A stretch of 37,528 bases of DNA. Source: a virus (taxonomy: Duplodnaviria; Heunggongvirae; Uroviricota; Caudoviricetes). Under the pieces are notes generated by a model that made no database searches, was not told where the DNA came from, and saw only the letters and a list, made by a program, of their open reading frames with translations. The stretch is from the IMG/VR virus record IMGVR_UViG_2541047697_000003. The stretch is one strand, 5' to 3'. Numbering within the stretch: the stretch's first letter is position 1; each line of letters begins with the position of its first letter. The position numbers were made by a program, and so were the translations under genes. This document shows positions 1 through 27,240 of this stretch, one piece after another.

Positions 1-258
1 ATGCAAACCGTTATTTTTGGTCGTCCGGGTTGCCCTTACTGTGTGCGTGCAAAAGATCTGGCTGAGAAATTGAGCAATGAACGCGATGATTTCCAGTATC
101 AGTATGTAGATATTCGTGCGGAAGGGATCACTAAAGAAGATCTACAACAAAAGGCAGGTAAACCCGTAGAAACCGTGCCGCAGATTTTTGTCGATCAGCA
201 ACATATCGGCGGCTATACCGATTTTGCTGCATGGGTGAAAGAGAATCTGGACGCCTGA
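1..258 (+). CDS. grxA: glutaredoxin 1
   Basis: 85-aa ORF with an ATG start and a CPYC redox motif (GRPGCPYCVRAK); the translation reads as E. coli GrxA from memory. Confidence 0.9.
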   Translation: MQTVIFGRPGCPYCVRAKDLAEKLSNERDDFQYQYVDIRAEGITKEDLQQKAGKPVETVPQIFVDQQHIGGYTDFAAWVKENLDA

Positions 259-267
259 TCGTCTGAC

Positions 268-288
268 AAGCCCTCGCGTTGAGGGCTT
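268..288 (+). terminator. hairpin terminator between convergent grxA and ybjM
   Basis: Inverted repeat aagccctc / gagggctt with a 5-nt loop, followed by a T-rich tract (ttattgatttttt), immediately after the grxA stop. Confidence 0.5.
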
Positions 289-665
289 TATTGATTTTTT
301 CTGTGCTGTGGTTTAAACAAACTACTGATAAATAAGAAACACAATGCCCCCAGCGCACACCAGAACACCGCACTTAATAACCATGCCAGCTCTTGCCAGA
401 ATGAGCGCGTCGGTGAAAAAAACAGCCGCATAATGAGCATCGAACAGGGTGCCGCCAGCATTGCGCCAAACAGAGGTTTCAGGACTTCTCTACGATGTGA
501 AAAGAAGCTGGCAACTGCACCAGGAAGAATGAAAAATAGCAAACCGATTTCAGGATGCCCGGCAGCCCGAAAAGCGCCTTTCATGTGCGTCGCCAGAAAA
601 AGACACACCACAATGAAGAGGACAAAACAGCAGATTGCCCCCGCCCAACGTTGTTTATGTTTCAC
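288..665 (-). CDS. ybjM: inner membrane protein YbjM
   Basis: 125-aa hydrophobic ORF convergent with grxA; matches YbjM by length and sequence from memory; start is GTG per the ORF track. Confidence 0.8.
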   Translation of the reverse strand: MKHKQRWAGAICCFVLFIVVCLFLATHMKGAFRAAGHPEIGLLFFILPGAVASFFSHRREVLKPLFGAMLAAPCSMLIMRLFFSPTRSFWQELAWLLSAVFWCALGALCFLFISSLFKPQHRKNQ

Positions 666-934
666 TCGTTCCTCCTGACACTGCGTCTATCGAACACATT
701 TTTCGCCAGTGTGGCGTTCAGTAAGATAAAGCCGCTTCGCATTCCATGCTAATATAGGCCAACGCAATTCATATAGCCGTTGATACCTAATGTGATTACA
801 CTAGTAAAATATATTGTTACTTTACTATCGTTTAGGTGCGCTGAATGAATCTGCGCCCTGAATTCTGGTAAAAAACATTATCGTAAATTACCATTTCTTT
901 CAACAGCTTACTAGTAAACAAGAAGTTAGCCTCC

Positions 935-2620
935 GTGAATATAAACGTCGCCGAATTGTTAAATGGGAATTACATTCTGTTATTATTTGTGGTCCTCGCG
1001 CTTGGGCTATGTCTCGGGAAATTACGACTTGGTTCGATCCAACTGGGTAATTCCATTGGCGTTTTAGTCGTATCGCTGTTATTAGGCCAACAACATTTCA
1101 GCATTAACACCGACGCGCTTAATCTTGGCTTTATGCTGTTTATTTTCTGCGTCGGGGTCGAAGCCGGACCGAACTTTTTTTCCATTTTTTTTCGCGATGG
1201 GAAAAATTACCTAATGTTAGCACTGGTGATGGTTGGCAGTGCGCTGGTGATCGCCTTAGGGTTAGGTAAGCTGTTTGGCTGGGATATTGGCCTGACGGCC
1301 GGTATGTTAGCTGGCTCTATGACGTCGACACCGGTTCTGGTCGGTGCTGGCGATACACTGCGTCATTCCGGCATGGAAAGCAGGCAGCTCTCACTGGCAC
1401 TGGATAATCTGAGCCTCGGGTATGCCTTAACCTATTTAATCGGTCTGGTGAGTTTGATTGTTGGTGCGCGTTACTTGCCGAAATTGCAGCATCAGGACTT
1501 ACAGACCAGCGCCCAGCAAATCGCCCGCGAACGTGGCCTGGACACTGATGCCAACCGTAAGGTTTATTTACCGGTGATCCGCGCCTACCGCGTCGGCCCG
1601 GAGCTGGTGGCCTGGACCGACGGCAAAAATCTGCGTGAACTGGGTATTTATCGACAAACTGGCTGCTACATTGAACGTATTCGACGTAACGGGATTCTGG
1701 CGAATCCAGACGGTGATGCTGTGCTACAAATGGGCGATGAAATAGCGTTGGTAGGCTATCCCGACGCCCACGCACGACTCGATCCCAGCTTCCGTAACGG
1801 CAAAGAAGTTTTCGATCGTGACCTTCTCGACATGCGTATCGTCACTGAAGAAGTGGTCGTTAAAAACCATAACGCCGTGGGCAAACGTCTCGCACAACTG
1901 AAGTTGACCGATCACGGTTGCTTCCTTAACCGCGTCATTCGTAGCCAGATTGAGATGCCGATAGATGACAACGTCGTGCTTAACAAAGGTGACGTTTTAC
2001 AAGTCAGCGGCGATGCCCGTCGCGTAAAAACCATCGCCGATCGCATCGGCTTTATCTCGATTCACAGCCAGGTCACTGACTTGCTGGCATTCTGCGCCTT
2101 CTTTGTTATTGGGCTGATGATCGGGATGATCACCTTCCAGTTCAGCACATTCAGTTTCGGCATGGGGAACGCTGCCGGGTTGTTATTCGCCGGAATTATG
2201 CTGGGCTTTATGCGCGCTAACCACCCGACCTTCGGTTACATTCCGCAGGGTGCATTAAGCATGGTGAAAGAGTTCGGCTTAATGGTGTTTATGGCAGGCG
2301 TTGGTCTGAGCGCCGGTAGCGGTATTAATAACGGCCTGGGCGCGATTGGCGGTCAGATGTTGATTGCCGGATTGATTGTCAGTCTTGTGCCAGTGGTTAT
2401 CTGTTTCTTGTTCGGTGCTTATGTATTGCGAATGAACCGCGCACTGTTGTTCGGCGCAATGATGGGCGCACGCACCTGCGCGCCGGCAATGGAGATCATC
2501 AGTGATACAGCTCGCAGTAACATCCCGGCGCTGGGCTATGCGGGCACCTATGCAATCGCCAACGTCCTGCTGACGCTGGCAGGGACAATCATCGTCATGG
2601 TATGGCCAGGATTAGGATAA
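935..2620 (+). CDS. ybjL: putative AAE-family transporter YbjL
   Basis: 561-aa ORF with a GTG start; hydrophobic N- and C-terminal membrane domains flank a soluble central region, typical of YbjL/YidE-type transporters. Confidence 0.85.
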
Positions 2621-2732
2621 AACTGAAGTTGCCCTGAAAATGAAATTTTTTTGCACAACCGCAGAACTTTTCCGCAGGGCATCAGTCTTAATTAGTGCCA
2701 CTGCTTTTCTTTGATGTCCCCATTTTGTGGAG

Positions 2733-2776
2733 CCCATCAACCCCGCCATTTCGGTTCAAGGTTGATGGGTTTTTTG
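2733..2776 (+). terminator. putative intrinsic terminator downstream of ybjL, near the prophage left junction
   Basis: 10-bp stem cccatcaacc / ggttgatggg followed by tttttt; the loop is long (about 17 nt), so confidence is moderate. Confidence 0.4.
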
Positions 2777-2855
2777 TTGCCTGAAATTTAAGCTGTTTAA
2801 AATCATGATGTTAGAAACACTGTTTTTTAACGATGGCGACAAAATGGCGGCAGCG

Positions 2856-3074
2856 TCAAAGAGAGAGCGCCACCTGTCCTGATTTCATTGGATGCGGCTG
2901 AACCGGATTTGACTCTTTTGGCGTTGCAATCGAACGAACAAAAGTTTCATGGGTAACAAAAGTATGGCTGCAGTTAATGTTCTGGCACTGGTTGTAACGC
3001 TCTTTGGTCAATGAAGATACCTGAAAACTGCTGCGAGTATGGGCGGCACTTCCACACAGTGGGCAAATCATCAT
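2856..3074 (-). CDS. ogr: Ogr/B-family zinc-finger late transcription activator
   Basis: 72 aa from the ATG at 3074 (track start is an upstream GTG); CPLCG...CQNINC Cys4 pattern and overall similarity to P2 Ogr / 186 B (MMICPLCGSAAHTRSS...TKERYNQCQNINCSHTF). Confidence 0.8.
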   Translation of the reverse strand: MMICPLCGSAAHTRSSFQVSSLTKERYNQCQNINCSHTFVTHETFVRSIATPKESNPVQPHPMKSGQVALSL

Positions 3075-3164
3075 TTTTCGAGTTCTCCCCATTTTTGCTA
3101 AATTCACAATAATGATACCGCATTATTCCATTTTGCAAACTTAAAAGTTCTCCATTGCGAAGAA

Positions 3165-4265
3165 TCATTCCATTTCGAAATCATCAATCCTCACTTCAAG
3201 CTCCAGACTGGTTGTAAAACCGTTATCGGGGCTGACGGTATGCGTCAGAGTCGTAATGGTCCATTCCGCATCATCTATCGGCTGTTTAAAGCCACTGACC
3301 TTCACAGGCATTTCTGTGTAGAGATCTGCCCGCCCTTCCGCCAGTTGTAGCGAGAATGATGCAACGCCGCGTTGCAGGCGTTCCCACTGCATTTTCGCTG
3401 CCCGTTCAGCGTTGCTTCGGTTGGCATAAGTGCGATTAAGTACCAGCACGTTTTCATCCGTACCCACCAGGTAATCGCCCTGCTTCGCTTCTGGCTCTTT
3501 CTTCTGCTTCTTAGTTCTGCGCTTACGCTTCACCGTGGTGCTTTCTTTCTTCGCGGGTTCGCGGGTATGCAACCAGCTGGCAATTACGCCCGTGTAGGCT
3601 CCGCGATCTGCCAGGGTAAAGCGGTGACTGTCGCCGTCCTTGCGTGTGATAGTGATCACCGGCAGTGGTTTACCAGTGGCGCTTTTGCCCTGTCCCTGCC
3701 GGATGAATAACAGATTGCCATTTTTCACCGACGCGATGGCACCGTACTGGCGCGCCAGCCGCATCAGAAAACTGCCGTCACTCTCATTAGTCTGGTCTAT
3801 ATGCTCCACGGGCTTATCCGACAGGTCTTTACCCAGTGCCATCTTCAGCTTGTGACGCGCGGCTATTTCCTTCACCACTTCCCCGACAGTGGTCTTGTGC
3901 CACGATTTTTCACGGCGGGTATTCAGCGTTTCCCTAAAATCAGCACTTCGCGCCCGGATAGTCAGGCGATCCGGTGCGCCAGTGTGTTCAATCTCGTCCA
4001 CCGTGAATGCCCCTTTCGGGAAAAGCGGCTGCCCCTTCCAGCCCAGCGCCAGCGTGATGACCGCACCACGGCGCGGCAGCACGATTTTTCCGTCGGCGTC
4101 GTCCAGTTCCAGATCAAGCTGGTCTGCTTCAAAGCCCCGATTGTCCGTCAGCGTCAGACTCATCAGGCGGTTATCCAGCACAGTGGTGATATCCTTTCCC
4201 TCAATACTGATGCTGAATGCGGGAGTTTTGTTGCCTTTGTTAAGCAGTTCAGAGCTGAAATTCAC
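3165..4265 (-). CDS. D: tail protein gpD-like
   Basis: 366-aa ORF immediately after U in P2 order; GTG start overlaps the U stop (GTGA). Confidence 0.75.
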   Translation of the reverse strand: MNFSSELLNKGNKTPAFSISIEGKDITTVLDNRLMSLTLTDNRGFEADQLDLELDDADGKIVLPRRGAVITLALGWKGQPLFPKGAFTVDEIEHTGAPDRLTIRARSADFRETLNTRREKSWHKTTVGEVVKEIAARHKLKMALGKDLSDKPVEHIDQTNESDGSFLMRLARQYGAIASVKNGNLLFIRQGQGKSATGKPLPVITITRKDGDSHRFTLADRGAYTGVIASWLHTREPAKKESTTVKRKRRTKKQKKEPEAKQGDYLVGTDENVLVLNRTYANRSNAERAAKMQWERLQRGVASFSLQLAEGRADLYTEMPVKVSGFKQPIDDAEWTITTLTHTVSPDNGFTTSLELEVRIDDFEME

Positions 4266-4747
4266 GACAGCAGCCCTCCCACCGTTTTACTGATATCGCT
4301 TAAGGCAGACGTTGCCGTATCCTGCAAATTATTCAGCTGCGCACTGAGATCACCGAACATATCGGACAGGGATTCATCCACCCGTTTGAGCGACAGGGTG
4401 AACTCAATCCGGCGCGGCATACCATCGCGGAAAAACTCCGTTTTAGTCTGATTCAGTCCCTCAATCACATACATGCCGTAAATCGTGCCGCTGCCTTCAA
4501 TCAGGGGCCATGCTTTTCCCTGTTCTGCCATCTGCTCCAGAGCCAGCAACGACAGCCTGCCGCCCGTTATCTCCGGCATAAGAACACCAGAAAGCGTCAG
4601 CATGTCGTTGTCCGGTCCCAGAAACTGCATGGACGGACGTCGGTTGACCCGGCTGTTTGCCGCATGTCGCCAGCTGCGTTGATACTGCAGTTCCTGATAC
4701 GGCACAGTGCGCAGCATAAACACGTACAATCCCAGCACCATCATCAT
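4262..4747 (-). CDS. U: tail protein gpU-like
   Basis: 161-aa ORF with an ATG start overlapping the T stop; position and size fit P2 gpU. Confidence 0.85.
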   Translation of the reverse strand: MMMVLGLYVFMLRTVPYQELQYQRSWRHAANSRVNRRPSMQFLGPDNDMLTLSGVLMPEITGGRLSLLALEQMAEQGKAWPLIEGSGTIYGMYVIEGLNQTKTEFFRDGMPRRIEFTLSLKRVDESLSDMFGDLSAQLNNLQDTATSALSDISKTVGGLLS

Positions 4748-7700
4748 GCGTAGTATCCCCCCTGATCGCTGTAGTTACTCCTGGCTTTTGCCTTCAGCCT
4801 GCGTTCACGTTCATCAAGCTGGCGGGCCACCTCCCGCGCAATATCCTGCGCACTTTGTCCTGGCTGCGTCTGAATGATGATCTGCGTCGGTGCCTCAATC
4901 CGTTGAACGGGCGGCACAGTGGCTGCACGACTCACCATCGCTTCGCCGCCTTTCGAGGGAAGTGCCAAAGGATGCAACGGTGGAAGCTCTGCAGGCGCGG
5001 CAGCAACGCCCATCATTCCGGCAACAACGGCAGCCAGTGAAGCTGTATTTCTCCGGCTGGTCACATTTGCCGGGCCGTTAACAATTTCCGGCCCGTTTTC
5101 ACCGACGATGCCAAACTGCCCGCGCGGGATATAGCCGCCGCTGTCATACATCCCCGCTAAGCCATATCCCCATGACGGAAAACCACCCGATGGCATCATC
5201 ACTTTACCGTCTGCATTCACCGTCGCAGGTTGCTGACGCGTCACGCTTTCCGGCAGTTTCGCCTTTGCGGCCTCTTTACTGACAATGCCGAGTTTTTCCA
5301 GCAACCAGGATACGCCGGATTTCAGGGAGTCCAGCGGATGCATGACCATATTCAGCCCTTCCGCCAGCGCCTCCCCGAATCGTCGCCCCATTGCCGCTGC
5401 GCTCTGCAGTTCGGCAGAAGTCGACTTAACGGGCGTCAGCAAATCAGTAAACCAGCCCCACAGCGCCTGCACTTTGTCGCCAATCCACTGGAACACAGGC
5501 TTAAGCGGTTCGAATGCGGCACTGATGGGTCCTGCCGCCGCTTTGAATCCTTCCACCACGCCACCGAGAAATGCGGTGATGGGTTGCCAGTATTTCCAGA
5601 CAACCAGCGCCACGCCCGCCAGTGCAGTAACCACAAGACCTATCGGACTTAGCAGAGCACCTAACAGACCAGATATGGCATACAGGGCAACGCGCAGCAT
5701 CGCCAGCGGACCAGATGCAAGCACACGAAGCACCGCGCCTACGGCAGCCAGTCCACCGCGCAGTACCGCCAGAGGATTCATAAACATCACAGCAACAGCA
5801 CGTAAACCGGATAATCCAGACCGCAATAGTGCAACCGGCGCACCTGCTACAGTTTTCAGGACATTTCCCGTCAGTGATGCCGTACGGCGCAAAGACGACA
5901 ACGGCGTAGTAAGTAAACCTGCGGCGTTACCCGATGAAGCAAGCCCGCGTCGCAGCAGTGCCAGTGGAGCGCCAGCCAGCCAGGACAACGCGCTGCTGGT
6001 TCGTGTTACTGCTGCCGTAACGGAAGGTAACGTTTTGATACCCAGCACAGAGAATCCCAGACGGATGACTGCCAGCGGCCCCAGCACTGCAGCCAGCGCC
6101 ACAGCCAAGGTGCCGAGGCCTACGGTAACCGCAGCCACAATAGCGGCTACTTTCATCAGTGTGCCTGTCAGTTCCGGGTTAGCTTCCACCCAGCGGCGCA
6201 ACGCCCCCGTGATGCTTTTCACCGTGTACAGAATATCCATCAGCGGCTGGCGCAGCGTTTCGCCCAGGCTGCTAAAGGTGTTCTGCGCTCCGGTTTTGAC
6301 CAGCAACCACTGAGCAGAAAGTGAGTCCTTATTGATGTCGGATTCTTTCTGCATGGAGCCGAGCGCATCATTGCCCGCTGTCAGTTTTAGCTGGCGCTGC
6401 AGTTCCGGCAGGTTGTTTGCCAGTTTCGCCGCGTCATCGCCAAACTCTTTACCAAACAACATGGTCATGGCAGACAGGCGCTTATCCTGCGGCAGTGCGT
6501 TCACCTTCTCCAGTACGCGCTGGATGGTTCCCATCGCATCCTTCGTCATCTGCTTTTCAATCACTTCAGGATTGAGTTTCAGCAGATTCATCCCTTCAAA
6601 GAAACTCTTGCTTTGCATGGTGGCAATGGACAATTCACGCACCATCGCGTTTGCTGCACTGGCTGCAACCTCCGGCGCAGCACCCAGTGTCAGGAAGGTG
6701 GAACCCAGCGCCGCCGCTTTACGATAATCCAGACGATCAGCCACACCGCCCAGGCGTTGCATGACATCAATGATGTCCGCCCCTTTCGACATGGCGTTAT
6801 CATCCAGATAGTTCAGCGCATCACCGAGCTGTTCAATATTGCGGGTAGGGATTTTGTAGAGCTGGGCGATTTTCCCCAGACTTTCTGACAGCTCATCCGC
6901 TGGCAGTTCAAAGGCTGTTGCCGCCTTTGCCGCCGTGCTGGCGAAGGCCAGCAGGTCACGTTTCTGGTCTTCCCAGCTGTCGTCAGGGTTTGCGACGTTC
7001 ATGCGCGCCCCACCTTCAACCAGTGCGGCGAAGTCCACCGCACCGTTTTCCATCGGCAACTGTTCGCTGGCAGCCTTGATGGCATCCTGCATTTCATAAA
7101 AACGTGCAGTGCGGTTGCCATTATCGTCACGCAGACCATTGACCTGCTTTGCCACACCTTTCATGGCATCTTCCATGCTGGTATAGCTTTTTACTGCCGC
7201 CATCACTGGCGTCCCCATTGCCAGCCCTGCCGCCGTGGTGGTGGCTCCGACTCCTGCGATGCGATCGCGCACCTCCAGCGAACGGGCATAACTGGCACGC
7301 GCTGCATTCATCCTGCGCTGAGCTTCCCCCAGTCGCTTCAGCCGCGCCTCCTGTTTCGACAGTTCCTGGTTATAACGTGATGTTTCACGGGCTAAACGGG
7401 CAGTTGCTCCCGCATCATCTTTCGCAGAAATTCCCGCCCGGTACAGTTCAGCACGCACAAGCACCGTTTGCTTCTGCAAGTATTTTTGTTGTTCTTCCAG
7501 GCGTTGGACTGCCAGCGTTTGCCGACCTAAAGCCATAAGGTGCCGTTGTGATGGTTGTTCCATCGCCTCCAGCTCAGAGCTAAGCAAATTAGCCTTCTGT
7601 CTGGCATAGTTCAGCCTGTCGCCTAACTTCTTGTTATCGGCCTGCAGCTTGCGAAATTTTTCCAGGCTGTTACCCGCCTGATTGAGTTGCTTTAATGCGT

Positions 7701-8304: not shown

Positions 8305-8820
8305 TCAGAGGCCGAGGGCGTTGCGGTGCGCTTCCATCAGGTCCATACCGTCCACAATTTCCACCATGTTGATAAGGTCCACTTCATAGAGCACCTCACC
8401 ATTGATGGTCAGCTTCGCGTAGCTGTTGGTACTGGTCACTTTGGTGGTGTTGCTTTCGCCCGTCTTCCACTCGCCGGAATCCACTTCTTTGTGACGTCCA
8501 CGCACCACAAGCTCCACGGCCTGCACTTCTCCGGTATCGTCACGCTGGATAGAGCCAGTAAAGCGCAACTGGATGCCATCCACCGTGGCTTTGCCCATCT
8601 GCTTAAACAGCAGCAGTTCAGTACCACCAATGGAAAATTCTGTGTCCAGCGCACTGTCATCAAGCCCCAGATCCACATCAACTGCACCAGGCATTCCGCC
8701 GCCGCGATACTTCTCATATTTGCGGGTGAATTTCGGCAGCGTCAGCGACTCTACGATCCCCTGCCAGTTGTTCCCGTCGTTAAACAGGTTCAGATGTTTT
8801 AATTTGCGTGGTAAAGCCAT
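8305..8820 (-). CDS. FII: tail tube protein FII-like
   Basis: 171-aa ORF downstream of FI; size and position fit P2 FII. Confidence 0.9.
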   Translation of the reverse strand: MALPRKLKHLNLFNDGNNWQGIVESLTLPKFTRKYEKYRGGGMPGAVDVDLGLDDSALDTEFSIGGTELLLFKQMGKATVDGIQLRFTGSIQRDDTGEVQAVELVVRGRHKEVDSGEWKTGESNTTKVTSTNSYAKLTINGEVLYEVDLINMVEIVDGMDLMEAHRNALGL

Positions 8821-8829
8821 GTTGTCCCC

Positions 8830-10002
8830 TTACGCGCTGACCTGGCTGGCGAAATTCACCAGGTACTGATCGGTGATGCGCTGGCGCAGCATCAGATTTT
8901 CAAGTGGCGGCACTGGCGTGTAGTCATAGTCGATGGTGAGTTTTCCGGCTTTCAGCGAGTCTTTGTCGTTCACCGACTCATCCAGCCAGCAATCACCACC
9001 AATGAGATAGCCCTGACTGACCAGGCTGCGCATTTTGGCGCGGATACCTTCGATAATGTCGCGGGCCAGCGACGGGTTAAGCGGTTTATCCACCGCCCAC
9101 ATGTGTGCTTCTGCCATCGTGTCCATCAGCACCTGCGCCGTGCGGGTGTAGTTTTCGAAGGCAAAGAGCGGGTCATCACTCAGGCAGCGGGAACCCCAGA
9201 AGCGGAAACCGTCCTTGCGCACAAGCGTGGTGACGTCGTTCTGGTTCAGCAGACCTGCATCGGTTGCCGGGTCCTGCAGATCCCAGAACACATCAGCAGA
9301 AATTCCGGTGACACCGTTCACGCCCACGTTGGACAGGCTTTTGTGCCATCCAGTCTGCTCATCAATTTTGGCGCGCAGACCGAGCGCACGAGCGGTGGCA
9401 TATGCCGTTGCTTCGGCATTCAGCACCGTGTCCCAGCCAGTAAAGTCAGGCCAGATCAGCATCCCTTCGCGCTGGCTGAAGTTTTCGCGGTAAGTGATCG
9501 CCTCCTGCGCTGTCTTGCAGCCATACGCTGACAGGTAAGCAAACCCACGCAGGCTTTGCGCCACGCTCAGCAACTCAGTAGCTACCGCCTTGGTGTCGTG
9601 GCCTGGCACGCCGAGAATGCGCGGTTTAACGCCGAGCTGTGACTGGGCAGATAACAGGGCTTTCATACCTGTTTTTTTACCTTCAGCAGTCACTGCGCCG
9701 ATGATATTGGTCGTGGTTTCTTCTTCCGTTTCACCCTGCGGCACACGCACAACAACGGTCACGGGTTTTGCCTGGTCAGCGATGGCGTCCAGCGAACGGG
9801 CCAGCGTACCGGACTCACCCGCTTTACCGCTGGCAGTCAGCACATCAGTGATCAGCACTGGTTTATTAAGAGGAAACATTTTTGCATCGGCATCATCGCC
9901 CGTGCAGACCATACCCACGATGGCGGTGCTCACCGTGGTAATGGATCGGGTACCTTCGTTGACTTCAACAACGCGCACCCCGTGGTGGTAATCCTGAGCC
10001 AT
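8830..10002 (-). CDS. FI: contractile tail sheath protein FI-like
   Basis: 390-aa ORF heading the FI-FII-E-T-U-D operon. Confidence 0.9.
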
Positions 10003-10078
10003 AGTGGCGAACCTCCTGATTGGATTAGGCTTCGCCCTATGTTGAAGTTATTGTGCCTGACAAACAGCTAAGCGCAGT

Positions 10079-10096
10079 TGTACCGTTATTCACACA
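10079..10096 (-). promoter_or_regulatory. putative Ogr-dependent late promoter element upstream of FI
   Basis: TGT-N12-ACA partial dyad (tgtaccgttattcacaca) centred about 85 bp upstream of the FI ATG; the same tgtacc...cacacaaa core recurs in the O/P intergenic region. Confidence 0.5.
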
Positions 10097-10144
10097 AAAT
10101 GACGGTATTTGTCTGCTTTCAGGGATAATCAAAATAAAGCTGAT

Positions 10145-10711
10145 TCAGGGAGATTCATTGCTCTTATTTGCCGGAAATTTTCGATAAATTGTAGAAACGC
10201 CTACATCAAAAATCAGTGCAATACGCTGTCTTGATTCTCCGGCCTTGAGTAAACGCCCAATCTGTGCCCACTGTTCGCTGGTCAACTTAGGACGGCGTCC
10301 ACCTACTCTGCCTTTAACACGAGCTGCAGCCAGCCCTGCCCTGGTACGTTCAACTATCAGTTCGCGTTCCATTTCAGCCAGGGCACCCATGACATGAAAA
10401 AAGAAACGGCCCATTGGGGTACTGGTATCAATACTGTCAGTCAGGTTTCGGAAATTCACGCCACGCTGGCGCAACTCTTCTATCAGCGTAACAAGATGCC
10501 GCATACTGCGCCCTAACCTGTCCAGCTTCCAGACAACCAGAGTGTCTCCTGCCGATAGTGTCCTGAGCAGTTTTTTCAGCCCCGGTCTTTCGGACTTAGT
10601 GCCACTGATTTTGTCCTCAAAAATCCGCTCACATCCCGCGCAGTTCAGTGCATTACGTTGCAAATCGGTGTTCTGGTCATTTGTTGACACGCGTACATAG
10701 CCAATAAGCAT
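10145..10711 (-). CDS. serine-recombinase DNA invertase (Gin/Hin/Cin/Pin family)
   Basis: 188 aa from the ATG at 10711; N-terminus MLIGYVRVSTNDQNTDLQRNAL with the catalytic Ser, and C-terminal HTH; near-identical in pattern to Mu Gin / P1 Cin. Confidence 0.9.
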   Translation of the reverse strand: MLIGYVRVSTNDQNTDLQRNALNCAGCERIFEDKISGTKSERPGLKKLLRTLSAGDTLVVWKLDRLGRSMRHLVTLIEELRQRGVNFRNLTDSIDTSTPMGRFFFHVMGALAEMERELIVERTRAGLAAARVKGRVGGRRPKLTSEQWAQIGRLLKAGESRQRIALIFDVGVSTIYRKFPANKSNESP

Positions 10712-10766
10712 GATCAATCCCCTGAATAAATACCGGGGATGATGCCAGTTAGCCGTTACCTCTGCA

Positions 10767-10792
10767 TTTTCTTAAACGTTGGTTTGGGAGAA
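10767..10792. other. gix/hix-like recombination site (invertase-proximal)
   Basis: Imperfect 26-bp dyad ttttcttaaacg-TT-GGTTTGGGAGAA; 16 bp (10779-10794) are a perfect inverted copy of 12593-12608. Confidence 0.7.
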
Positions 10793-11119
10793 GGAGCAAA
10801 ACTCAATGCAGCAACGGCTACATTAGGACGCACCGGTTTCATAGCTATACCGGTTATGATTGGTGGTATTGAGCAATCAGTAATCATTCAGTGGGGGTGG
10901 AATGCCGCAAAAGCATCTGCCTCTGGGGGGGATGGAAATACAGTTGTATTCCCGGTTGCGTTTAATAATGCCTGTGTTGCCGTTGTTGCAAATTATGACA
11001 ATGTCAGCGCACCTATCAATGCAGTGGCAACGGGGGGATATACAACCACTTCGTTTTTATTACGGTGCGCAGCTCAAACGGGTAGTTATTACTATAACTG
11101 GATTGCTATTGGGTATTAA
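10781..11119 (+). CDS. alternative tail-fibre C-terminal variable domain (promoterless cassette, fused to H constant region after inversion)
   Basis: Open frame begins at the crossover site with the same GLGEG junction as H and runs 112 codons to a TAA; no sensible independent start. Confidence 0.6.
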   Translation, partial: GLGEGAKLNAATATLGRTGFIAIPVMIGGIEQSVIIQWGWNAAKASASGGDGNTVVFPVAFNNACVAVVANYDNVSAPINAVATGGYTTTSFLLRCAAQTGSYYYNWIAIGY

Positions 11120-11120
11120 G

Positions 11121-11534
11121 ATGAAAATATACTGTTGCTTAAATACCGTTGGTTTTTTTATGGATGGCTGTGGCGTCATTCCGCCAGATTCTAAAGAAAT
11201 AACGGCAGAACACTGGCAGTCATTATTAAAATCTCAAGCTGAAGGAGGCGTGATCGATTTTTCTGTTTTTCCTCCTTCTATTAAAGAGGTTATCCGTACT
11301 CATGATGATGAAGTCGCAGATGCGAACTTTCAAAAGCAGATGCTTATCTCTGATGCAACTGATTTTATCAATAGCAGACAGTGGCAGGGTAAGGCTGCAT
11401 TGGGAAGACTTAAAGAAGATGAGCTGAAACAATATAATTTGTGGCTGGATTATCTGGAAGCACTGGAACTGGTTGATACATCCAGTGCACCAGATATTGA
11501 ATGGCCTACGCCTCCGGCAGTTCAGGCCAGATGA
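11121..11534 (+). CDS. alternative tail fibre assembly protein (Tfa')
   Basis: ATG one base after the cassette stop; C-terminus ...TSSAPDIEWPTPP parallels the C-terminus of the expressed Tfa (...TSTAPDVIWPELP). Confidence 0.65.
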   Translation: MKIYCCLNTVGFFMDGCGVIPPDSKEITAEHWQSLLKSQAEGGVIDFSVFPPSIKEVIRTHDDEVADANFQKQMLISDATDFINSRQWQGKAALGRLKEDELKQYNLWLDYLEALELVDTSSAPDIEWPTPPAVQAR

Positions 11535-12108
11535 CATCCGGCGCGGTGCTGGTATCCGTTGCCGTCACCGCGTCAATGTAATCCAGCACAGCGTTTAGTC
11601 GGGTGGTTTCTGTCTGCGTCAGCTTCCTCCCGGCTTGCAATTTCAGTTGAATCAGACTAATGGAAGCCATTGCAGTATCGATCAGCGACTGGCGCTGTGC
11701 TTCTGCTGCATCTACTGCGGCGCTATGCTGTGCCTCGATATCCGTCACCCATTTCTCACCATCCCATTTATCATATGGCGTTAATAGGGCGATAGTGGTT
11801 GTATTTTCAGGGTAATCACCCGGAGCGGTGATTTCTTTTGATTCTCCTGTTTCGGTGCTATAGACCGTTTCACCGCGATGGTCTGGCACATATTCCCATG
11901 AGTTAAAATCTGCAGAACGGCAGATTGCATAACCAGCCTTATGTGTGCCAGGGGCATCTAAACAGGAACATGCCGGAATACCGACACCTACAGCAAGATA
12001 TTCAGTTGACGTGGAAATATATTCCCGTGTTTCACCATCGTAGTTATAAACGGTAACATCCCCTGCCTTTGTTGCAATAAGCTCACTATTTAATATTGCT
12101 TTATGCAT
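11506..12108 (-). CDS. G: tail fibre assembly protein (gpG/Tfa-like), currently in expressed orientation
   Basis: 200-aa ORF whose start overlaps the H stop; Tfa-type C-terminus. Confidence 0.85.
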   Translation of the reverse strand: MHKAILNSELIATKAGDVTVYNYDGETREYISTSTEYLAVGVGIPACSCLDAPGTHKAGYAICRSADFNSWEYVPDHRGETVYSTETGESKEITAPGDYPENTTTIALLTPYDKWDGEKWVTDIEAQHSAAVDAAEAQRQSLIDTAMASISLIQLKLQAGRKLTQTETTRLNAVLDYIDAVTATDTSTAPDVIWPELPEA

Positions 12109-13655
12109 CAGGCTGCCCTCACGATATAGTTAAATACAATATTACGCGGACGCGTTTCTGAGGCTGCGGCACCTAAACCAGCCACTGATTGTTTATATGT
12201 TTTAAAAGTTCCATAATCCGGGGCTGGTAATCCGGCATCGTTTGTGTTTCCTCTTTTGATAATGTCAGTGCCACTATTTACCCAGCTTTCATCAAAATAG
12301 AAATTAATCGTTGCATCAGTCACAATCGTGGATCTTGACGGTAATCCATGAGCATGATCCTCAGTTGCATACCCCTGAATACTTAAAATAGAGCGACCTG
12401 TATCAATCCCCCGCCCGTCATCCCAGCCACGAATAAACTCACCACGTAAATCAGGCAATTTATTTGTCGGATAAGCCTTTGCCAGTTCCGGGTATTCTTC
12501 AGCAGAAAAAGCGGCACCGTTGCATTTCAGCCAACCTGTTGGCGGAGTGGCTGAAGGCCACGGAACAGGGACACCAACAGGTAATGCAGAGCCTTCTCCC
12601 AAACCAAGGTATGTGAGAAGACCAGCTACATCCTTTCCACTCAAATTGGTAAGCGTATTGTCCAGCGGTTGTTTACCTGACAGCGCATTAAGCATTGTCG
12701 TGGCAAAGTTCGGATCATTCCCCAGCGCCGCTGCCAGTTCGTTCAGCGTATCCAGTGCCGCAGGTGCAGAACCCACCATTGCTGCAATTGCCGATTTCAC
12801 AAAAGCGGTAGTGGCAATCTGTGTATTGTTGACCGACTGCGCCGCCGTGGGAGCTGTTGGCGTTCCAGTGAGTGCCGGACTCGACAGCGGCGCTTTTTGT
12901 GCCAGTGAATTGTTAATGGTGGTACTGAATTTCGGATCATTGTTAATGGCTGCGGCTATTTCTTTCAGCGTGTCCAGCGTGGCTGGCGCACCATTAATAA
13001 GAGCCGTCAGAGCCGCCTGAACAAACGCGGTGGTCGCAATCTGCGTGGTGTTATTCCCTGCTGCTGGCGTTGGCGCTTTGGGTGTCCCGGTAAACGTCGG
13101 ACTTTCTTTGGGTGCATACTGTGAATGCGGGTCCGGTGCGGCAAGATGTTTTGCCATCTGATCATCCGCGTACACCTTCAGCTCCAGTACCTTATCATCC
13201 ACATACTTGCGGGTTGCCAGCACTACGGCAGGGTCGATTTTCAGGGTGATATTGTCCGTGCTGCTGGTAATCAGCACCATGCGCACGGTCTGGGTACGCC
13301 CGCTGCCTTCAGCCAGTTGCGGCTTATAGCTTTCCGGGCAGTTTCCCACGGCAATCAATGCCCCGGACTCATCAAACAGGCCCACTTCACGTATCCACCA
13401 ACCGCCCTCGTTTTCAGGGATCACCTGTTCAGCAATAATCTGGCTGCTATTCTGCGGGTCGATATAAAGCATATTCAGCGCAGCCCGGCGTTTCTCATTT
13501 ACCAGTGCCGTCTGCTTTGCGTCCGGCGTTGGCAATACTCCGCCACCATCGCCCACCGCCATATGGGTAATTTTTAGCGGCACACCGAGCGCGGCGGCGC
13601 TGGCAAGTTTCGCCGCGCCAATATCCGTCAGCAGGGTATAAAATTTTGTGCTCAT
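12108..13655 (-). CDS. H: tail fibre protein gpH-like (constant N-terminal part plus variable C-terminal part)
   Basis: 515-aa ORF; N-terminus MSTKFYTLLTDIGAAKLA typical of P2 H; internal repeats; the gix-like site falls at about codon 350. Confidence 0.9.
   Translation of the reverse strand: MSTKFYTLLTDIGAAKLASAAALGVPLKITHMAVGDGGGVLPTPDAKQTALVNEKRRAALNMLYIDPQNSSQIIAEQVIPENEGGWWIREVGLFDESGALIAVGNCPESYKPQLAEGSGRTQTVRMVLITSSTDNITLKIDPAVVLATRKYVDDKVLELKVYADDQMAKHLAAPDPHSQYAPKESPTFTGTPKAPTPAAGNNTTQIATTAFVQAALTALINGAPATLDTLKEIAAAINNDPKFSTTINNSLAQKAPLSSPALTGTPTAPTAAQSVNNTQIATTAFVKSAIAAMVGSAPAALDTLNELAAALGNDPNFATTMLNALSGKQPLDNTLTNLSGKDVAGLLTYLGLGEGSALPVGVPVPWPSATPPTGWLKCNGAAFSAEEYPELAKAYPTNKLPDLRGEFIRGWDDGRGIDTGRSILSIQGYATEDHAHGLPSRSTIVTDATINFYFDESWVNSGTDIIKRGNTNDAGLPAPDYGTFKTYKQSVAGLGAAASETRPRNIVFNYIVRAA
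12595..12620. other. gix/hix-like recombination site inside the tail-fibre gene H
   Basis: TTCTCCCAAACC-AA-ggtatgtgagaa; a perfect 16-bp inverted repeat of the site at 10779-10794; lies at H codons about 346-354, the GLGEG junction. Confidence 0.7.
12663..13100 (-). repeat. internal imperfect tandem duplication (about 2 x 215 bp) within H
   Basis: Protein repeats TGTPKAPTPAAGNNTTQIATTAFVQAAL...LDTLKEIAAAINNDPKF and TGTPTAPTAAQSVNNTQIATTAFVKSAI...LDTLNELAAALGNDPNF; DNA copies are visibly similar. Confidence 0.5.
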
Positions 13656-14257
13656 GGATTCACTCTCATTGTGTCAATAACATGGACCGCCCCGCCTTCA
13701 TGCGCGGTGCCACCGGAAATAATCGTTTCGTTGATATACGGATAGATCGTGATTTCTTCGCCAAGATAGCTGGCGGCTCCCACCCAATGCGGGCCGCTGG
13801 TCTGCAGATTGATGGACATGCCGATCATGTGGCGGCTACATGGTTTGGCATCGCTTATCAGTCGCTCAAGTTCCAGATAGGTATCTTCAGTGATGCCATG
13901 GTCCTGCACGCCGATATCCAGGCGAAACGTGCCCGGTGTTTCTCCGGTCTGCCACCACTCAATAATGCGGATCAGAAAGCCGAACGGTTCCACTACCCGC
14001 CGCACTGCACTGGTGGTTCCTTTATGCTGATGAATATAAAAAGCATCCTTCACCACCTGACGTTTGACGCTTTCAGTCCAGCCCTCATCCCAGCGATCCA
14101 CAGAGAACGCCCAGGCGAGATAAGGCAGGAAGCTGACCGGACAGGTCGCCGGATTCCACAAGTCACGAAGCGGCACCTGCAGATCAGAAATCCCGCTGCA
14201 GGTTTGCGCCAGTCGGCGCTCCAGTGGTGTTGAACCCGGTGGCAGCAGACTATTCAT
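13652..14257 (-). CDS. I: baseplate assembly protein gpI-like
   Basis: 201-aa ORF in the P2 V-W-J-I-H-G order; ATG overlaps the J stop region. Confidence 0.85.
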   Translation of the reverse strand: MNSLLPPGSTPLERRLAQTCSGISDLQVPLRDLWNPATCPVSFLPYLAWAFSVDRWDEGWTESVKRQVVKDAFYIHQHKGTTSAVRRVVEPFGFLIRIIEWWQTGETPGTFRLDIGVQDHGITEDTYLELERLISDAKPCSRHMIGMSINLQTSGPHWVGAASYLGEEITIYPYINETIISGGTAHEGGAVHVIDTMRVNP

Positions 14258-15158
14258 CCGTTCCTCCGTTGGTTACGCTCCACTGCGTACATGATGCCGC
14301 CTGCGTTTTGTTCAGGACCACATCCGCCAGAGGTGAAGCCAGCTCCACACGCTGCACACCCTCAACATGCAGGGCGGCAAAGATAGCGCTACGGCGAATA
14401 TCCCGACCAAGACGCGTCTGACTGGCGATGTACTTCTGCAGGCTGGCTTTTGCCGCTGCCATTACCGGCTCTGCTTCCGGTCCCGGATAGAGAAAAATGG
14501 TGGCTTCCACGCGATACGGGATGATTTCTGCGCTGCGAACCGTAAGACGGTCAGCCACCGGGCGGACGTTCTCACTGTTCAGAGCTTTTTCCACCACGTC
14601 CAGCAGGTCTTTTTCTGCAGTTCCATCGCCTTCGCGGCTAAGGACAGTCAGCACCACCTCTGCAGGTGCCGGGCTGGTTGCACTGGCATCCGCCACCCGA
14701 CCGTCGGCGCTTCGGGCATGAAATTCATAAGCTGCAGTTGGCCCCGCAACTGAAAGCCCTTCAAAGGCTGCAGGCACACGCAGGCGTAACGCTTCATCAC
14801 TTTCCATCACAGCCGCAACGGGCGGCACAGCGTCATTATCAGCAGGCGTCACCGTCAAGCGTTTCACGTTGTAGTTGGCAGCGATTTGGTCCAGATCGCC
14901 GCCCATCGCGTAAGCCACCATCACCGCCTGCGCGGCTTCGTTAATGCGCTGGCGCAGAAGCAAATCACGGTAAGCGTTCTCCTGCAACAATTTGGTGACG
15001 GGTTCAGATTCCAGTTCCAGCGTGCGGATCACGGCTTCCTGCTCATCTTTCGGATGAAGCGCCACAAATTCTGCCTTGCGTTCGGCAAGCAGCGTCTCAA
15101 AGTCCGGCACATCCACAATCTGCGGTGCAGGCAACTGCGAAAGGTCAATCACTGCCAT
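14250..15158 (-). CDS. J: baseplate assembly protein gpJ-like
   Basis: 302 aa from the ATG at 15158 (MAVIDLSQLPAP...) with AGGAG 9 nt upstream; the track start is a GTG 13 codons further up. Confidence 0.85.
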   Translation of the reverse strand: MAVIDLSQLPAPQIVDVPDFETLLAERKAEFVALHPKDEQEAVIRTLELESEPVTKLLQENAYRDLLLRQRINEAAQAVMVAYAMGGDLDQIAANYNVKRLTVTPADNDAVPPVAAVMESDEALRLRVPAAFEGLSVAGPTAAYEFHARSADGRVADASATSPAPAEVVLTVLSREGDGTAEKDLLDVVEKALNSENVRPVADRLTVRSAEIIPYRVEATIFLYPGPEAEPVMAAAKASLQKYIASQTRLGRDIRRSAIFAALHVEGVQRVELASPLADVVLNKTQAASCTQWSVTNGGTDE

Positions 15159-15504
15159 TCTCTGCTCCTGTTGATACGGAAAGGGACACAGGCACACCGT
15201 TATTACATCGCCCGGTCAGCTCCACCACCATTGAACCGTCAAAATTGCTGTTGATGGTGATGGAATCCAGCGTCAGCCGTGGCTCCCAGCGACTCAGCGC
15301 CACATACACTGCCGACATGACCTGCAGGCGTAACGCCGGATTTTGTGGCTGGTCTATCAGTGCCGACAGCAGGGAACCATATTCACGACGGGCAATACGG
15401 CTACCCTGTGGCGTGATGAGTATGTCTTTAACAGACTGATTGAGGTGCTCAATATCGGTAATGGCCTTGCCCGTTGCGCTGTTCATGCCGTAATACATCG
15501 TCAT
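15145..15504 (-). CDS. W: baseplate wedge protein gpW-like
   Basis: 119-aa ORF with an ATG start overlapping the V stop. Confidence 0.85.
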   Translation of the reverse strand: MTMYYGMNSATGKAITDIEHLNQSVKDILITPQGSRIARREYGSLLSALIDQPQNPALRLQVMSAVYVALSRWEPRLTLDSITINSNFDGSMVVELTGRCNNGVPVSLSVSTGAENGSD

Positions 15505-16079
15505 ACCGGGCCTCCCGATGTGTCGCCGCCAGACTTCACTTTATTGTGCGCGTGGTCATCCACCACGATCTCGTTGGAACTCATCGGGCCGCCGCCCTGA
15601 GTCACACCACCGTTGATCACCACCTCACTGTTAATACGGGTGGTGTCGGCTTCCACGATAAACTCCCCGGTTTTGAAGGTGACGTTATCCACCGCCTCGA
15701 TCACCATGGATTTAATACCCCGAACGTACCAGCGCCCGGTTTCGGGGTCGTACTCAAACCAGCCGCCGTCTGGGTATTCCGTCACGTTGCCGTCCTCAGA
15801 CTTGGACGGCGGCGGAAACTGGTTTGAATAGACGGCAGGCAGGGCAAAGGCGGTTTCCAGATTGCCGCCCAGGCTGAACAGCACAACCTGCTCCCCCACA
15901 GACGGTTTCCACCAGGTGCGCGAGTTGCCCGCGCGCAGCGTCAGCCAGTTAATCCAGTTGGTTTCAAGCTCACCCGTTTTCACCCGGCACAGCCAGTTGT
16001 CCCGGTCCACTTCCGTTACAGTTCCGGTGCGGATTAGGTTGGTGATAAGGCGCATGATTTCTGTGAGTTGTGCGTTCAT
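15501..16079 (-). CDS. V: baseplate spike/assembly protein gpV-like
   Basis: 192-aa ORF with an ATG start; first gene of the V-W-J-I-H-G block. Confidence 0.85.
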   Translation of the reverse strand: MNAQLTEIMRLITNLIRTGTVTEVDRDNWLCRVKTGELETNWINWLTLRAGNSRTWWKPSVGEQVVLFSLGGNLETAFALPAVYSNQFPPPSKSEDGNVTEYPDGGWFEYDPETGRWYVRGIKSMVIEAVDNVTFKTGEFIVEADTTRINSEVVINGGVTQGGGPMSSNEIVVDDHAHNKVKSGGDTSGGPV

Positions 16080-16193
16080 AGCTATAGATTGCCATGAATG
16101 ATGTATCTAAGAACAAGGTGAGCTTAGTCTGGTCCATGACACAATTAAGAATTACTATATAAAAATTGTTAACTACTTGGTTGAGAAACAAAC

Positions 16194-17180
16194 ATGAAAA
16201 ATAAGAACCAGTATCAGGCTTTACTTAGAGGGAAGGTCGAATCGGCGATTGCTCAAGCCAAAAGTGCTGCAGGATTTTCCCACCAGGGTGTTAAGGGAGC
16301 TGTTCTAGAAATATTATTAAGTCAACTATTTCGACCTCTTTTGCCCGCAGATGTTGGCATCGGCACAGGGCAAATCATTGAACAGTATTCAGGAAAGTTA
16401 TCACCTCAAATAGATATTATTATTTACAATAAATCAATACTCCCTCCGATATTAATCGATGGTGCCACAGGGTTATTCCCAATAGAATCAGTTCTATATA
16501 CCATTGAGGTAAAAACCACATTAAGCTCATCGGAACTCAGCTCTGCACACTCAAGTGCAAAAGAACTTAATGAGAAATTCGGTTACTTACCTGGAATAAA
16601 AGATGAATCAGGCAAACTAATCCAACACAAAATAGAAAAACTTCGCTCGGTAATATTTGCTCTAAGTAGCGACTTATCACCAAATGGAATTACTGAAGCC
16701 GAAAGGTATAAAAAAATATACAAAGAAGACTTTCGTTACGTTACAGCAATTTGCGTTGCAGGTCGTGAGTATAGTTATGAAGATCGAGATTGCTGGGTAA
16801 CAATGCGTAATACTCAAGCGTATGATGAAATCCTTGCATTTATTGGAGGCATAACCAATACATACAAAGGTGTTTCAGAAAGTCGTGGGACACCATTGCT
16901 AGGATATTACATTGTTCCAGAGAATGTCGAACTGAGCCTTACAGCTTGTACCACACTCCCGGAATTGCAAGTTAAGTGCACGCAATGCGCTGAAACTAAA
17001 AAAATAATCCCCACCTTTGACAACGATGATGAACTAATACTAAAAAACTACACTCTTTCTGATAACAAGCCTTGTAAATGTGGTGGGGAATTTAAATCAG
17101 AAAAAGGTAATTTCACCATTAAAAATGGTCGACTGAGAGAAATAGAGTACAACGAGCCAGATCGAATTTACAAAGAGTAA
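16194..17180 (+). CDS. AT-rich cargo protein with a PD-(D/E)xK-like motif and a C-terminal Cys4 cluster (function unknown)
   Basis: 328-aa ORF with an ATG start; the only plus-strand gene in the late structural block, in the V-S slot; translation shows ...QIDIIIYNK...YTIEVKTT... and CTQC...CKCGG. Confidence 0.75.
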   Translation: MKNKNQYQALLRGKVESAIAQAKSAAGFSHQGVKGAVLEILLSQLFRPLLPADVGIGTGQIIEQYSGKLSPQIDIIIYNKSILPPILIDGATGLFPIESVLYTIEVKTTLSSSELSSAHSSAKELNEKFGYLPGIKDESGKLIQHKIEKLRSVIFALSSDLSPNGITEAERYKKIYKEDFRYVTAICVAGREYSYEDRDCWVTMRNTQAYDEILAFIGGITNTYKGVSESRGTPLLGYYIVPENVELSLTACTTLPELQVKCTQCAETKKIIPTFDNDDELILKNYTLSDNKPCKCGGEFKSEKGNFTIKNGRLREIEYNEPDRIYKE

Positions 17181-25632: not shown

Positions 25633-26718
25633 CTAACGTTTCAACCAAAGGTCATCTACAGAAAACGAATCGAATTCATTCTCAGATGGAGAATAAATAA
25701 AGCTCACTGTAAAATACGGTCTAACCAAAATCTCTAAAGTCACAACGTCACCATCACCATGAGTAAATGGGAATGCCGAATCTAAATCGCTTTTATTTTC
25801 AATATAATCCAAATAAGGAATATCCACTTCAATAAAAACCCGTCTCAAATTAAAAGAATAGGCAATGTAATATTTATCCGCATCAATTGAAGTGATGCCT
25901 TCAATATAGCCATCCTCGAAATCTTCGATGACATCAACTCTAACATCCAAAACATTCGAAACTCTAGACTCAAAAATATTATTTTCAAGGTATTGACTAA
26001 GCATCATGTGATTAAAACTTGATAAATAATCGATACACTCACCTTCTAGAAACTCCTCGAAATAAGGCTCACTTCTTGCATGATCAAAAGCATGGATACT
26101 CTTATCAATAGATGATGTAACGAAGTCAAATAGCTTCCGATATGGAGTTATTTTTTGTGTTATGCCTAACTCTTCAATATCTCTTAGAAGATCATCATTA
26201 AACGTTGCAGGACCTTTACTGTTGGTAAAAAAGTCTGAGCTATTCTCAGTAATAAATACAAAATCATCATTACCCCCTGATGATTTGATATATTGAAGAA
26301 AAGATAACCAGATCAACGTATCACGGTATCCTTTTTCTTGTTCTGAGAAAGGTTTTATCTTTTCAAGGGCCCTACCAACCACCTTAGCATGTGGAATATC
26401 GTTATAATCTATTAAAATTAAATTATCAACTTCCTTATTTAATATTTCTTTCAAATCATATTGTTCAATACCTAAGTTTTCAATTTTAAAATCTATTGGA
26501 TTCTGATTAAGCTTTTTAATTTTACTAATAATGGAACGCATTTCATTTAATTGATTTTTGAGCTCTCTATTCCTGATATTGTTAGTCTCCTCAATTACTA
26601 AATTTGATAATAACAAGTCGTTACATTCATTATTCAAAAAATGGAAAAGAAGTTTAAAATTAGCATTTTTAGCAAACCAATTATTGTAAAATATATTTGT
26701 ATCCAAAAAAACTTTCAT
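25633..26718 (-). CDS. AT-rich cargo protein with an N-terminal PIN-like motif (function unknown)
   Basis: 361-aa ORF with an ATG start; N-terminus MKVFLDTNIFYNNW resembles the first acidic strand of PIN-fold nucleases; lies between Q and the putative cos. Confidence 0.7.
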   Translation of the reverse strand: MKVFLDTNIFYNNWFAKNANFKLLFHFLNNECNDLLLSNLVIEETNNIRNRELKNQLNEMRSIISKIKKLNQNPIDFKIENLGIEQYDLKEILNKEVDNLILIDYNDIPHAKVVGRALEKIKPFSEQEKGYRDTLIWLSFLQYIKSSGGNDDFVFITENSSDFFTNSKGPATFNDDLLRDIEELGITQKITPYRKLFDFVTSSIDKSIHAFDHARSEPYFEEFLEGECIDYLSSFNHMMLSQYLENNIFESRVSNVLDVRVDVIEDFEDGYIEGITSIDADKYYIAYSFNLRRVFIEVDIPYLDYIENKSDLDSAFPFTHGDGDVVTLEILVRPYFTVSFIYSPSENEFDSFSVDDLWLKR

Positions 26719-26935
26719 CTGTCTTTTCCAGTGATGTAGTTAATAACATAGGTAATTATAAATTGAATTGTAGGCCGGATCCACTGATAGTGGATCCGGT
26801 TTAAAAGATTGCATTTATGGCAATGTCAAGTATAAAAACAACCACAACATAATGATTGTATATCCAAAGGCCGTCAGTAAATCATAGCAATTATCACTTA
26901 CAGGGGATGTGCGATTTTAATCGTTCAGCCGCGCG

Positions 26936-26954
26936 CTCATATCCCCGCCACGCC
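26936..26954 (-). other. putative cos (cohesive-end) site
   Basis: Minus-strand GGCGTGGCGGGGATATGAG followed by GCGCGCGGCTGAACG, resembling the P2/186 cohesive-end sequence as remembered (GGCG-A/T-GGCGGGGAAAGCA...); reads toward Q as in P2. Confidence 0.45.
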
Positions 26955-27240
26955 TGCCCGCTTTATGTAGCGGTTTTCATGCAGGTGCATGATCTACGCA
27001 AAATCCCACCAGTTCTGGCGGGCCTTAGCAAAAACGATCCGCAAACGATCATGCGATCTCATGCGGCATAGTCATGCACTTACGGGGGAACTGAAATCCA
27101 GTAACCGAATGATCGCTTGAAAAACGAAACATACGTACTTACAAAGCACAAAGCCTGCTTTGAGCGAAGCGGACGTTAATAATGTTGCTGACCATCCCTA
27201 GTACTTCTCATAATATAGCCCTATGTTAATCAACAAAATA

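Follow-up and report, generated by a model that had tools for sequence, protein, structure and literature searches.

The 37,528-nt stretch of viral DNA analysed here (IMG/VR record IMGVR_UViG_2541047697_000003; hereafter the window) carries a P2-type prophage tail cluster. At positions 10,145 to 13,655 the gene for the tail fibre protein H lies close to a gene for a serine DNA invertase. The 3' part of H and the gene for its chaperone occupy one strand. Facing them on the other strand are an alternative fibre C-terminus and a second chaperone gene. Inverted repeats bracket the two opposed sets, and the invertase gene sits just outside (Table 1). We are confident that this module switches the tail fibre by Pin-type (Din family) site-specific inversion, in an apparently intact P2-like (Peduoviridae) prophage of Escherichia coli. 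The system itself is already known: nearly the same DNA forms the P segment of the element e14, and annotations of the module exist for many P2-like phages and genomes of E. coli.

Table 1. Positions of the features of the tail-fibre locus within the window
Feature	Position	Strand	Remarks
Serine DNA invertase gene, 188 aa, Pin/Gin/Cin/Fin group	10145-10711	-	Just outside the segment
Putative Fis-dependent recombinational enhancer	10626-10693		Gene nt 19-86, in the 5' end of the invertase gene; placed by homology
Open reading frame, 126 aa	10739-11119	+	14-aa hydrophobic leader and gp53-like cassette in frame
Invertase-proximal 26-bp crossover site (pixR-like)	10767-10792		Core TT at 10779-10780
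Invertible segment (predicted)	10781-12605		1825 bp between core dinucleotides; 1797 bp between 16-bp repeats
Alternative fibre C-terminus, gp53-like cassette	10781-11119	+	Pfam Gp53-like_C, 2e-16
TfaP chaperone of the alternative cassette, 137 aa	11121-11534	+	Pfam Caudo_TAP, 1.3e-19
TfaE-like chaperone of the expressed cassette, 200 aa	11506-12108	-	P2 G position; Pfam Caudo_TAP, 9.4e-32
Variable H C-terminus now expressed (collar-domain cassette)	12108-12605	-	Pfam Collar, H residues 361-408
Tail fibre protein H, 515 aa	12108-13655	-	
Distal 26-bp crossover site (pixL-like), inside H	12594-12619		Core AA at 12606-12607
Constant N-terminal part of H, about 350 aa, to ...LLTYLGLGEG	12606-13655	-	Pfam Phage_tail_fib, 7e-65, residues 1-150

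Crossover sites, fibre cassettes and invertase

The segment is framed by a perfect 16-bp inverted repeat, TTGGTTTGGGAGAAGG at 10779-10794 and CCTTCTCCCAAACCAA at 12592-12607. The initial annotation had found this repeat and placed its left arm correctly, but set the right arm one position too far along, at 12593-12608. Its bracketed length of about 1.85 kb also needs correction, as 1825 bp separate the core dinucleotides. In a repeat search the arms extend to a 28-nt pair with 82% complementarity and 1797 nt between them. The 16-bp repeat is the longest spaced exact inverted repeat in the whole window, and only two sites in the window match it with three mismatches or fewer. A chance origin was rejected because a spaced exact inverted repeat of at least 16 nt arose in only 3 of 300 shuffles of the surrounding 5.5-kb region.

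Each arm overlaps an imperfect 26-bp dyad, as had been proposed in likening the sites to gix and hix. The half-sites agree at 8 of 12 positions in the proximal site and at 10 of 12 in the distal one. Measured against the consensus TTCNNNNAAACN-NA-NGTTTNNNNGAA, which we took with the Din-family site table from PMC3241671, both match the Din (Hin/Gin/Cin/Pin) pattern at 14 of the 15 specified positions, and nowhere else in the window is there a sequence within two mismatches of it. The reverse complement of the proximal site reads TTCTCCCAAACC AA CGTTTAAGAAAA and differs from the published e14 pixR at a single position (25/26). The distal site reads TTCTCCCAAACC AA GGTATGTGAGAA and agrees with e14 pixL at 22 of 26 positions; it shares an identical inner half-site and core with the proximal site. 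The cores TT and AA are compatible in inverted orientation, and the locus has the two imperfect dyads by which the Din family is recognised. Since there are only two crossover sites, we rejected a multi-site system such as Min of p15B, the three-site P2-like prophage of enteropathogenic E. coli (EPEC) or a shufflon. No sign of a reverse transcriptase or a diversity-generating retroelement emerged, although no search aimed at either was made.

The coding content of the segment is equally clear. The Collar and Caudo_TAP matches at 12108-12605 and 11506-12108 bear out the assignment of a variable H 3' part and its Tfa to the minus strand. From GLGEG to its end, H is identical to e14 stfE at 162 of 165 residues, and the TfaE-like chaperone to TfaE of K-12 at 191 of 200. 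On the opposite strand, all 112 residues of the gp53-like cassette are those of the e14 StfP C-terminus, and the TfaP chaperone is likewise identical to its K-12 counterpart (137/137). The gp53-like cassette is not used for the fibre in the present orientation. All five open reading frames of the module are intact in the window.

The two chaperone genes run towards each other and share 29 bp at their 3' ends (11506-11534). An 18-nt imperfect inverted repeat (11444-11461 and 11570-11587) brackets this overlap and lies within the 3' parts of both genes.

To follow the effect of an inversion, we exchanged in silico the DNA between the two core dinucleotides. H remains open and in frame, at 462 aa instead of 515 aa, with a different C-terminal domain. 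After ...LLTYLGLGEG the sequence changes from SALPVGVPVPW... to AKLNAATATLGR..., so that the junction falls at GLGEG in both reading frames. Because the flip keeps H open and switches it right after GLGEG, the repeat is located exactly at the protein junction. The initial annotation had predicted a swap of the fibre C-terminus at this motif and had made its case depend on the repeat lying at such a junction; both points hold in the flipped sequence.

The gene immediately outside the segment had been called a Gin/Cin-like serine invertase, with good reason. Its product matches Pfam Resolvase (1.7e-51) and HTH_7 (1.2e-15), and the Mu Gin structures 3uj3/4m6f match it end to end (E 8e-92, residues 1-184). 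Alignment to these structures places the catalytic Ser9 in an RVSTNDQ motif. Protein identity is 85% to PinE of e14, 85.7% to the Fels-2 invertase, 78% to P1 Cin and 73.5% to Mu Gin, and the gene is 80.6% identical to pinE in DNA sequence. On these similarities we place the protein in the Gin/Cin/Pin group of serine invertases, in the Din family. A comparison with NCBIfam yielded no specific equivalog, either for the invertase or for parts of the fibre. Gin, Cin and Fin are all much closer to the window invertase than are PinR and PinQ of K-12, which carry insertions around residues 30 and 40 and differ in the sequence of the C-terminal domain.

The basic helix-B residues 47, 48 and 51 of Hin, together with Gln151, Arg154 and Leu155 in helix 1 of its DNA-binding domain, are uniquely conserved in Fis/enhancer-dependent invertases (McLean et al., PMC3798978). 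Reading the alignment with an offset of -1 from Hin, fixed by 1hcr (query 140-183 to chain residues 3-46), we find the same signature in the window invertase as K46, K47, R50, Q150, R153 and L154. An AGGGGA Shine-Dalgarno sequence lies 7 nt ahead of the start codon ATG at 10711, which agrees with the annotated 567-nt coding sequence of relatives. The TTG at 10717, chosen by the program that listed open reading frames, is probably not the true start. Transcription of the gene runs away from the segment.

Inversion in relatives and a proposed mechanism

Positions 10774-12619 of the window are 97.3% identical over 1846 nt to the e14 P segment of strain MG1655. A 2025 study reported the e14 crossover repeats as 5'-TTGGTTTGGGAGAAGG-3' and 5'-CCTTCTCCCAAACCAA-3', with a segment of 1797 bp (PMC12529663); these repeats and this spacing are identical to those of the window. 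The same study found that the P segment is inverted by PinE, PinQ and PinR, and that P segment inversions occur in 33% of 562 surveyed E. coli genome sequences. Goldberg et al. (PMC4272514), using sequencing and PCR, observed that both e14 orientations coexist in clonal cultures, and they also detected inversions in two P2-like prophages of EPEC.

Both orientations also occur among natural relatives of the window module. We searched 5,426 complete E. coli genomes with the 3.7-kb region, as found and flipped in silico. At least 80% of the region was recovered in one piece in the window orientation in 14 genomes and in the flipped orientation in 9. These queries supersede earlier ones with 601-nt junctions, whose counts of 373 versus 2 were confounded by cassette mosaicism. 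The alignment of E. coli 2547 falls into three blocks, with window positions 8806-10794 and 12592-16095 running forward and 12607-10776 inverted between them. The blocks end at 10776-10794 and 12592-12607, which puts the breakpoints inside the 16-bp repeat. In two chicken isolates, GPEC1366 and GPEC673, the prophage flanks (2.8 kb and 3.1 kb) are 100% identical and the 1.9-kb segment is 99.95% identical, but inverted. In this relative, which shares about 96% identity with the window across the region, inversion therefore occurs on very short time scales. Together with the e14 experiments, the comparison takes inversion of the segment beyond plausibility, and we infer it for this particular prophage.

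RefSeq splits the flipped fibre gene of GPEC1366 (4317-5738) into a pseudogene with a 'missing C-terminus' and a separate gp53-like coding sequence. The flipped-state reading frame is in fact open, at 473 aa.

In the Din pathway, invertase dimers bind two sites and act with a Fis enhancer about 100 bp away; cleavage at the 2-bp core is followed by rotation and religation (PMC3798978). In the window, dimers of the 188-aa invertase would bind the two 26-bp sites and form an invertasome with host Fis bound to the enhancer in the 5' end of the invertase gene. All four strands would be cut at the central AA/TT, half of the tetramer would rotate by 180 degrees, and rejoining would flip the 1.8-kb segment. 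The late operon promoter would drive the constant 350-aa N-terminal part of H in either state. Because the crossover lies within the GLGEG codons, this constant part would be fused to one of two C-termini. In the present state the collar-domain cassette, followed by the TfaE-like chaperone, would give the 515-aa H, and in the flipped state the gp53-like cassette, followed by the TfaP-like chaperone, would give the 462-aa form. A population of lysogens would then release two kinds of virion that differ in receptor specificity, the two fibres presumably recognising different receptors. For inversion at exactly these repeats in e14, and for the Fis/enhancer mechanism, we draw on the literature.

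The enhancer is the least secure part of this scheme. Din-family enhancers are about 65 bp long and contain two Fis sites, inside the invertase coding region. In the phage P7 record the cin enhancer is annotated at nt 19-86 of the gene, where the window sequence aligns gap-free. About 97 bp separate the centre of a conserved proximal 15-mer, GTGTCAACAAATGAC, from that of the proximal crossover site, a distance that fits the approximately 100 bp described for Hin. Where residues are conserved, identical codons are used more often in codons 7-29 than in codons 30-135 in 11 of 11 pairs, a comparison that involves small numbers and non-independent pairs and in which the window-gin margin is slight (0.38 v 0.37). 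Homology to cin and this modest synonymous-site conservation hint that the enhancer may function here.

If the module works as proposed, the window shows the e14 P segment in an intact phage, where it would operate as a real fibre switch. There is also a practical warning, since assemblies and automatic annotation present one orientation as 'frameshifted' or 'incomplete' genes. Only one of the two fibre tips is visible at full length in a single assembly, and this affects host-range prediction for P2-like prophages.

Alternative explanations

Several observations weigh against a working switch in this prophage. The window itself shows one orientation only, the single defined orientation given in the initial annotation, with the 515-aa H as the expressed form. 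One cassette looks damaged in each of the two closest E. coli relatives, E. coli 2547 (600 aa) and 07-4299 (423 aa), where lengths of 423 aa and 600 aa stand in place of 515 aa and 462 aa. Such modules can evidently decay, although all open reading frames of the window are intact. A strict scan for paired Fis sites, defined as G-N13-C with an AT-rich centre and a distance of 47-49 bp, gave no hit in the invertase gene of the window; it gave none in those of e14 or Mu either, and is thus too strict to be informative. All three observations would suit a frozen relic, in which inversion has ceased, for example because the invertase is silent or the enhancer lost, and in which the second cassette is dead cargo. 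We consider this very unlikely. The module keeps five intact reading frames, the catalytic and Fis-contact residues of the invertase, and inner half-sites and cores that are identical in both sites. The silent cassette and its chaperone retain 100% protein identity to the e14 versions, the segment of the GPEC relative inverted recently, and other Pin invertases act in trans on these sites (PMC12529663). The repeat could instead be a by-product of two homologous GLGEG-coding junctions, with inversion proceeding by general homologous recombination. It does encode the same peptide motif in both cassettes. However, RecA-dependent recombination needs far more than 16 bp to be efficient, and the repeats sit in Din-consensus 26-bp dyads with a 2-bp core, beside a Din-family invertase. 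Moreover, pinE and pinE pinQ mutants lock the identical e14 segment (PMC12529663), and we give general recombination almost no credence as the source of inversion.

A different possibility concerns who benefits from the switch. The initial annotation had described the plus-strand cassette and its Tfa as promoterless. Both genes are present, and we found no promoter-like plus-strand site ahead of the 126-aa reading frame, the promoter-scan matches in the region being no more frequent than in shuffled sequence. What that description had missed is that the cassette has a conserved ATG of its own, at 10739 and outside the segment, from which the reading frame begins MMPVSRYLCIFLNVGLGEG. An equivalent ATG (ATGCCA) lies 26-29 nt from the invertase start codon in e14, Mu (Mup52), Fels-2 (STM2703) and two E. 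coli relatives. In the window orientation, the frame corresponds to the published StfE2, a protein with a gp53-like domain at residues 47-125 that is reported to cut T2 adsorption when made from a plasmid (PMC12529663). The switch might then serve the lysogen also, or even mainly, with the 126-aa product acting as a free receptor-binding-domain protein that blocks adsorption of other phages. The conserved ATG, the leader in frame with the cassette, the complete identity of the cassette to that of e14 and the effect of StfE2 on T2 all point this way. Against it, a promoter-like site is missing from the plus strand, and a Shine-Dalgarno-like GGGGA directly abuts the ATG, with zero spacing. The conserved ATGCCA could instead be part of the promoter region of the invertase, on the opposite strand. 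In addition, the published effect depended on overexpression in a cryptic prophage, whereas an intact P2-like phage has an obvious fibre-tip use for both cassettes. Real expression from this ATG is unlikely, and we regard a role for the switch in the lysogen as improbable. It is similarly doubtful that the cassette facing the invertase is expressed in a fully functional phage, such that one inversion both sets virion host range and toggles an adsorption-blocking defence of the lysogen. A Pin-type switch of the virion fibre remains our preferred reading of the locus.

Prophage context and comparison with known inversion systems

The surrounding genes agree with the P2-type tail module named in the initial annotation. 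The tail cluster runs J-I-H-G-invertase-FI-FII-E-T-U-D, in keeping with the P2 order V-W-J-I-H-G / FI-FII-E-E'-T-U-D, and Pfam recognises Tail_P2_I (1.9e-54), sheath, GPD and GPA families. Over 82% of 24.9 kb, the region shares 95% identity with deposited P2-like (Peduoviridae-type) phage records. Annotated relatives belong to the genera Wadgaonvirus and Elveevirus. The prophage begins at ogr and reaches as far as an integrase at the window's right end. Chromosomal DNA of E. coli, at 99.9% identity, makes up roughly the first 2.8 kb of the window (grxA, ybjM, ybjL and the small RNA gene rybB). The rybB gene (2700-2778, plus strand; Rfam, 105 bits) immediately adjoins the ogr end of the prophage, so that the 3' end of rybB, or its vicinity, may hold the attachment site.

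The prophage also carries several genes besides the tail module. Beside the portal gene, in the position of P2 old, are two cargo genes (25633-29184, minus strand): the first encodes a 647-aa P-loop NTPase of the KAP family, with a match to PDC-S49, a candidate defence family in PADLOC (E 9e-157), and the second a 361-aa protein with a PIN_12 domain. Between gpV and gpS, at the P2 orf30 position and on the opposite strand (16194-17180, plus), lies a 328-aa reading frame with a DUF6602 domain that matches PADLOC PD-(D/E)xK and NucC-like nuclease models (E 7e-32 and 7e-14). This frame is likely to be a further defence gene or a moron. A D12-class, Dam-like N6-adenine DNA methyltransferase gene (32477-33394, minus strand), which matches an orphan methyltransferase model (E 9e-111), lies directly downstream of gpA, the replication gene.

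Gin/Cin/Pin-type inversion switches of tail fibres have been textbook material since the 1980s. Among P2-like phages, the layout of the window is shared by Fels-2 (Salmonella, Peduoviridae; invertase Fin) and by the Escherichia phages 500465-1 and Cartapus, in which the invertase is annotated between fibre and sheath genes. The order common to these three is I, H, G, an opposed G' and H' cassette, invertase, FI, FII, E and T. The cassettes of P2-like relatives are mosaic: the constant part of H and the invertase are held in common, and the C-terminal cassettes differ. Such relatives match only 52-77% of the 3.7-kb region. One P2-like prophage of EPEC has three sites and four variants (PMC4272514), in contrast to the two sites of the window.

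The G segment of Mu with Gin and the C segment of P1/P7 with Cin follow the same plan, in which a constant fibre N-terminus is joined to one of two opposed C-termini, each with its chaperone. They also share the 26-bp sites, the 2-bp core and a Fis-dependent enhancer within the invertase gene, the last being putative in the window. However, the Mu and P1 cassettes are unrelated to those of the window, and their segments are larger (about 3 kb in Mu and 4.2 kb in P1). The core dinucleotide of Gin is GA, whereas that of the window is AA. In P1/P7 the cin gene reads towards the segment, with its 3' end overlapped by cixL; the window invertase points away.

The e14 P segment and PinE were reportedly described by Plasterk and van de Putte in 1985 and by Mehta et al. 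in 2004. As in the window, the e14 invertase is transcribed away from the segment. Protein identity between the two is 100% for the StfP cassette and for TfaP, 98% for the StfE cassette and 95.5% for TfaE. MG1655 was deposited with its e14 segment in the opposite orientation relative to the invertase. The two systems differ in the outer half of the distal site (pixL in e14) and, above all, in what the segment is attached to. In e14 the constant part is a 97-aa StfP N-terminus in a decayed element, and in the window it is the full 350-aa N-terminus of a P2-type H, in a complete tail module. The closest relative of the window switch is the Pin and P segment of e14, rather than Gin or Hin.

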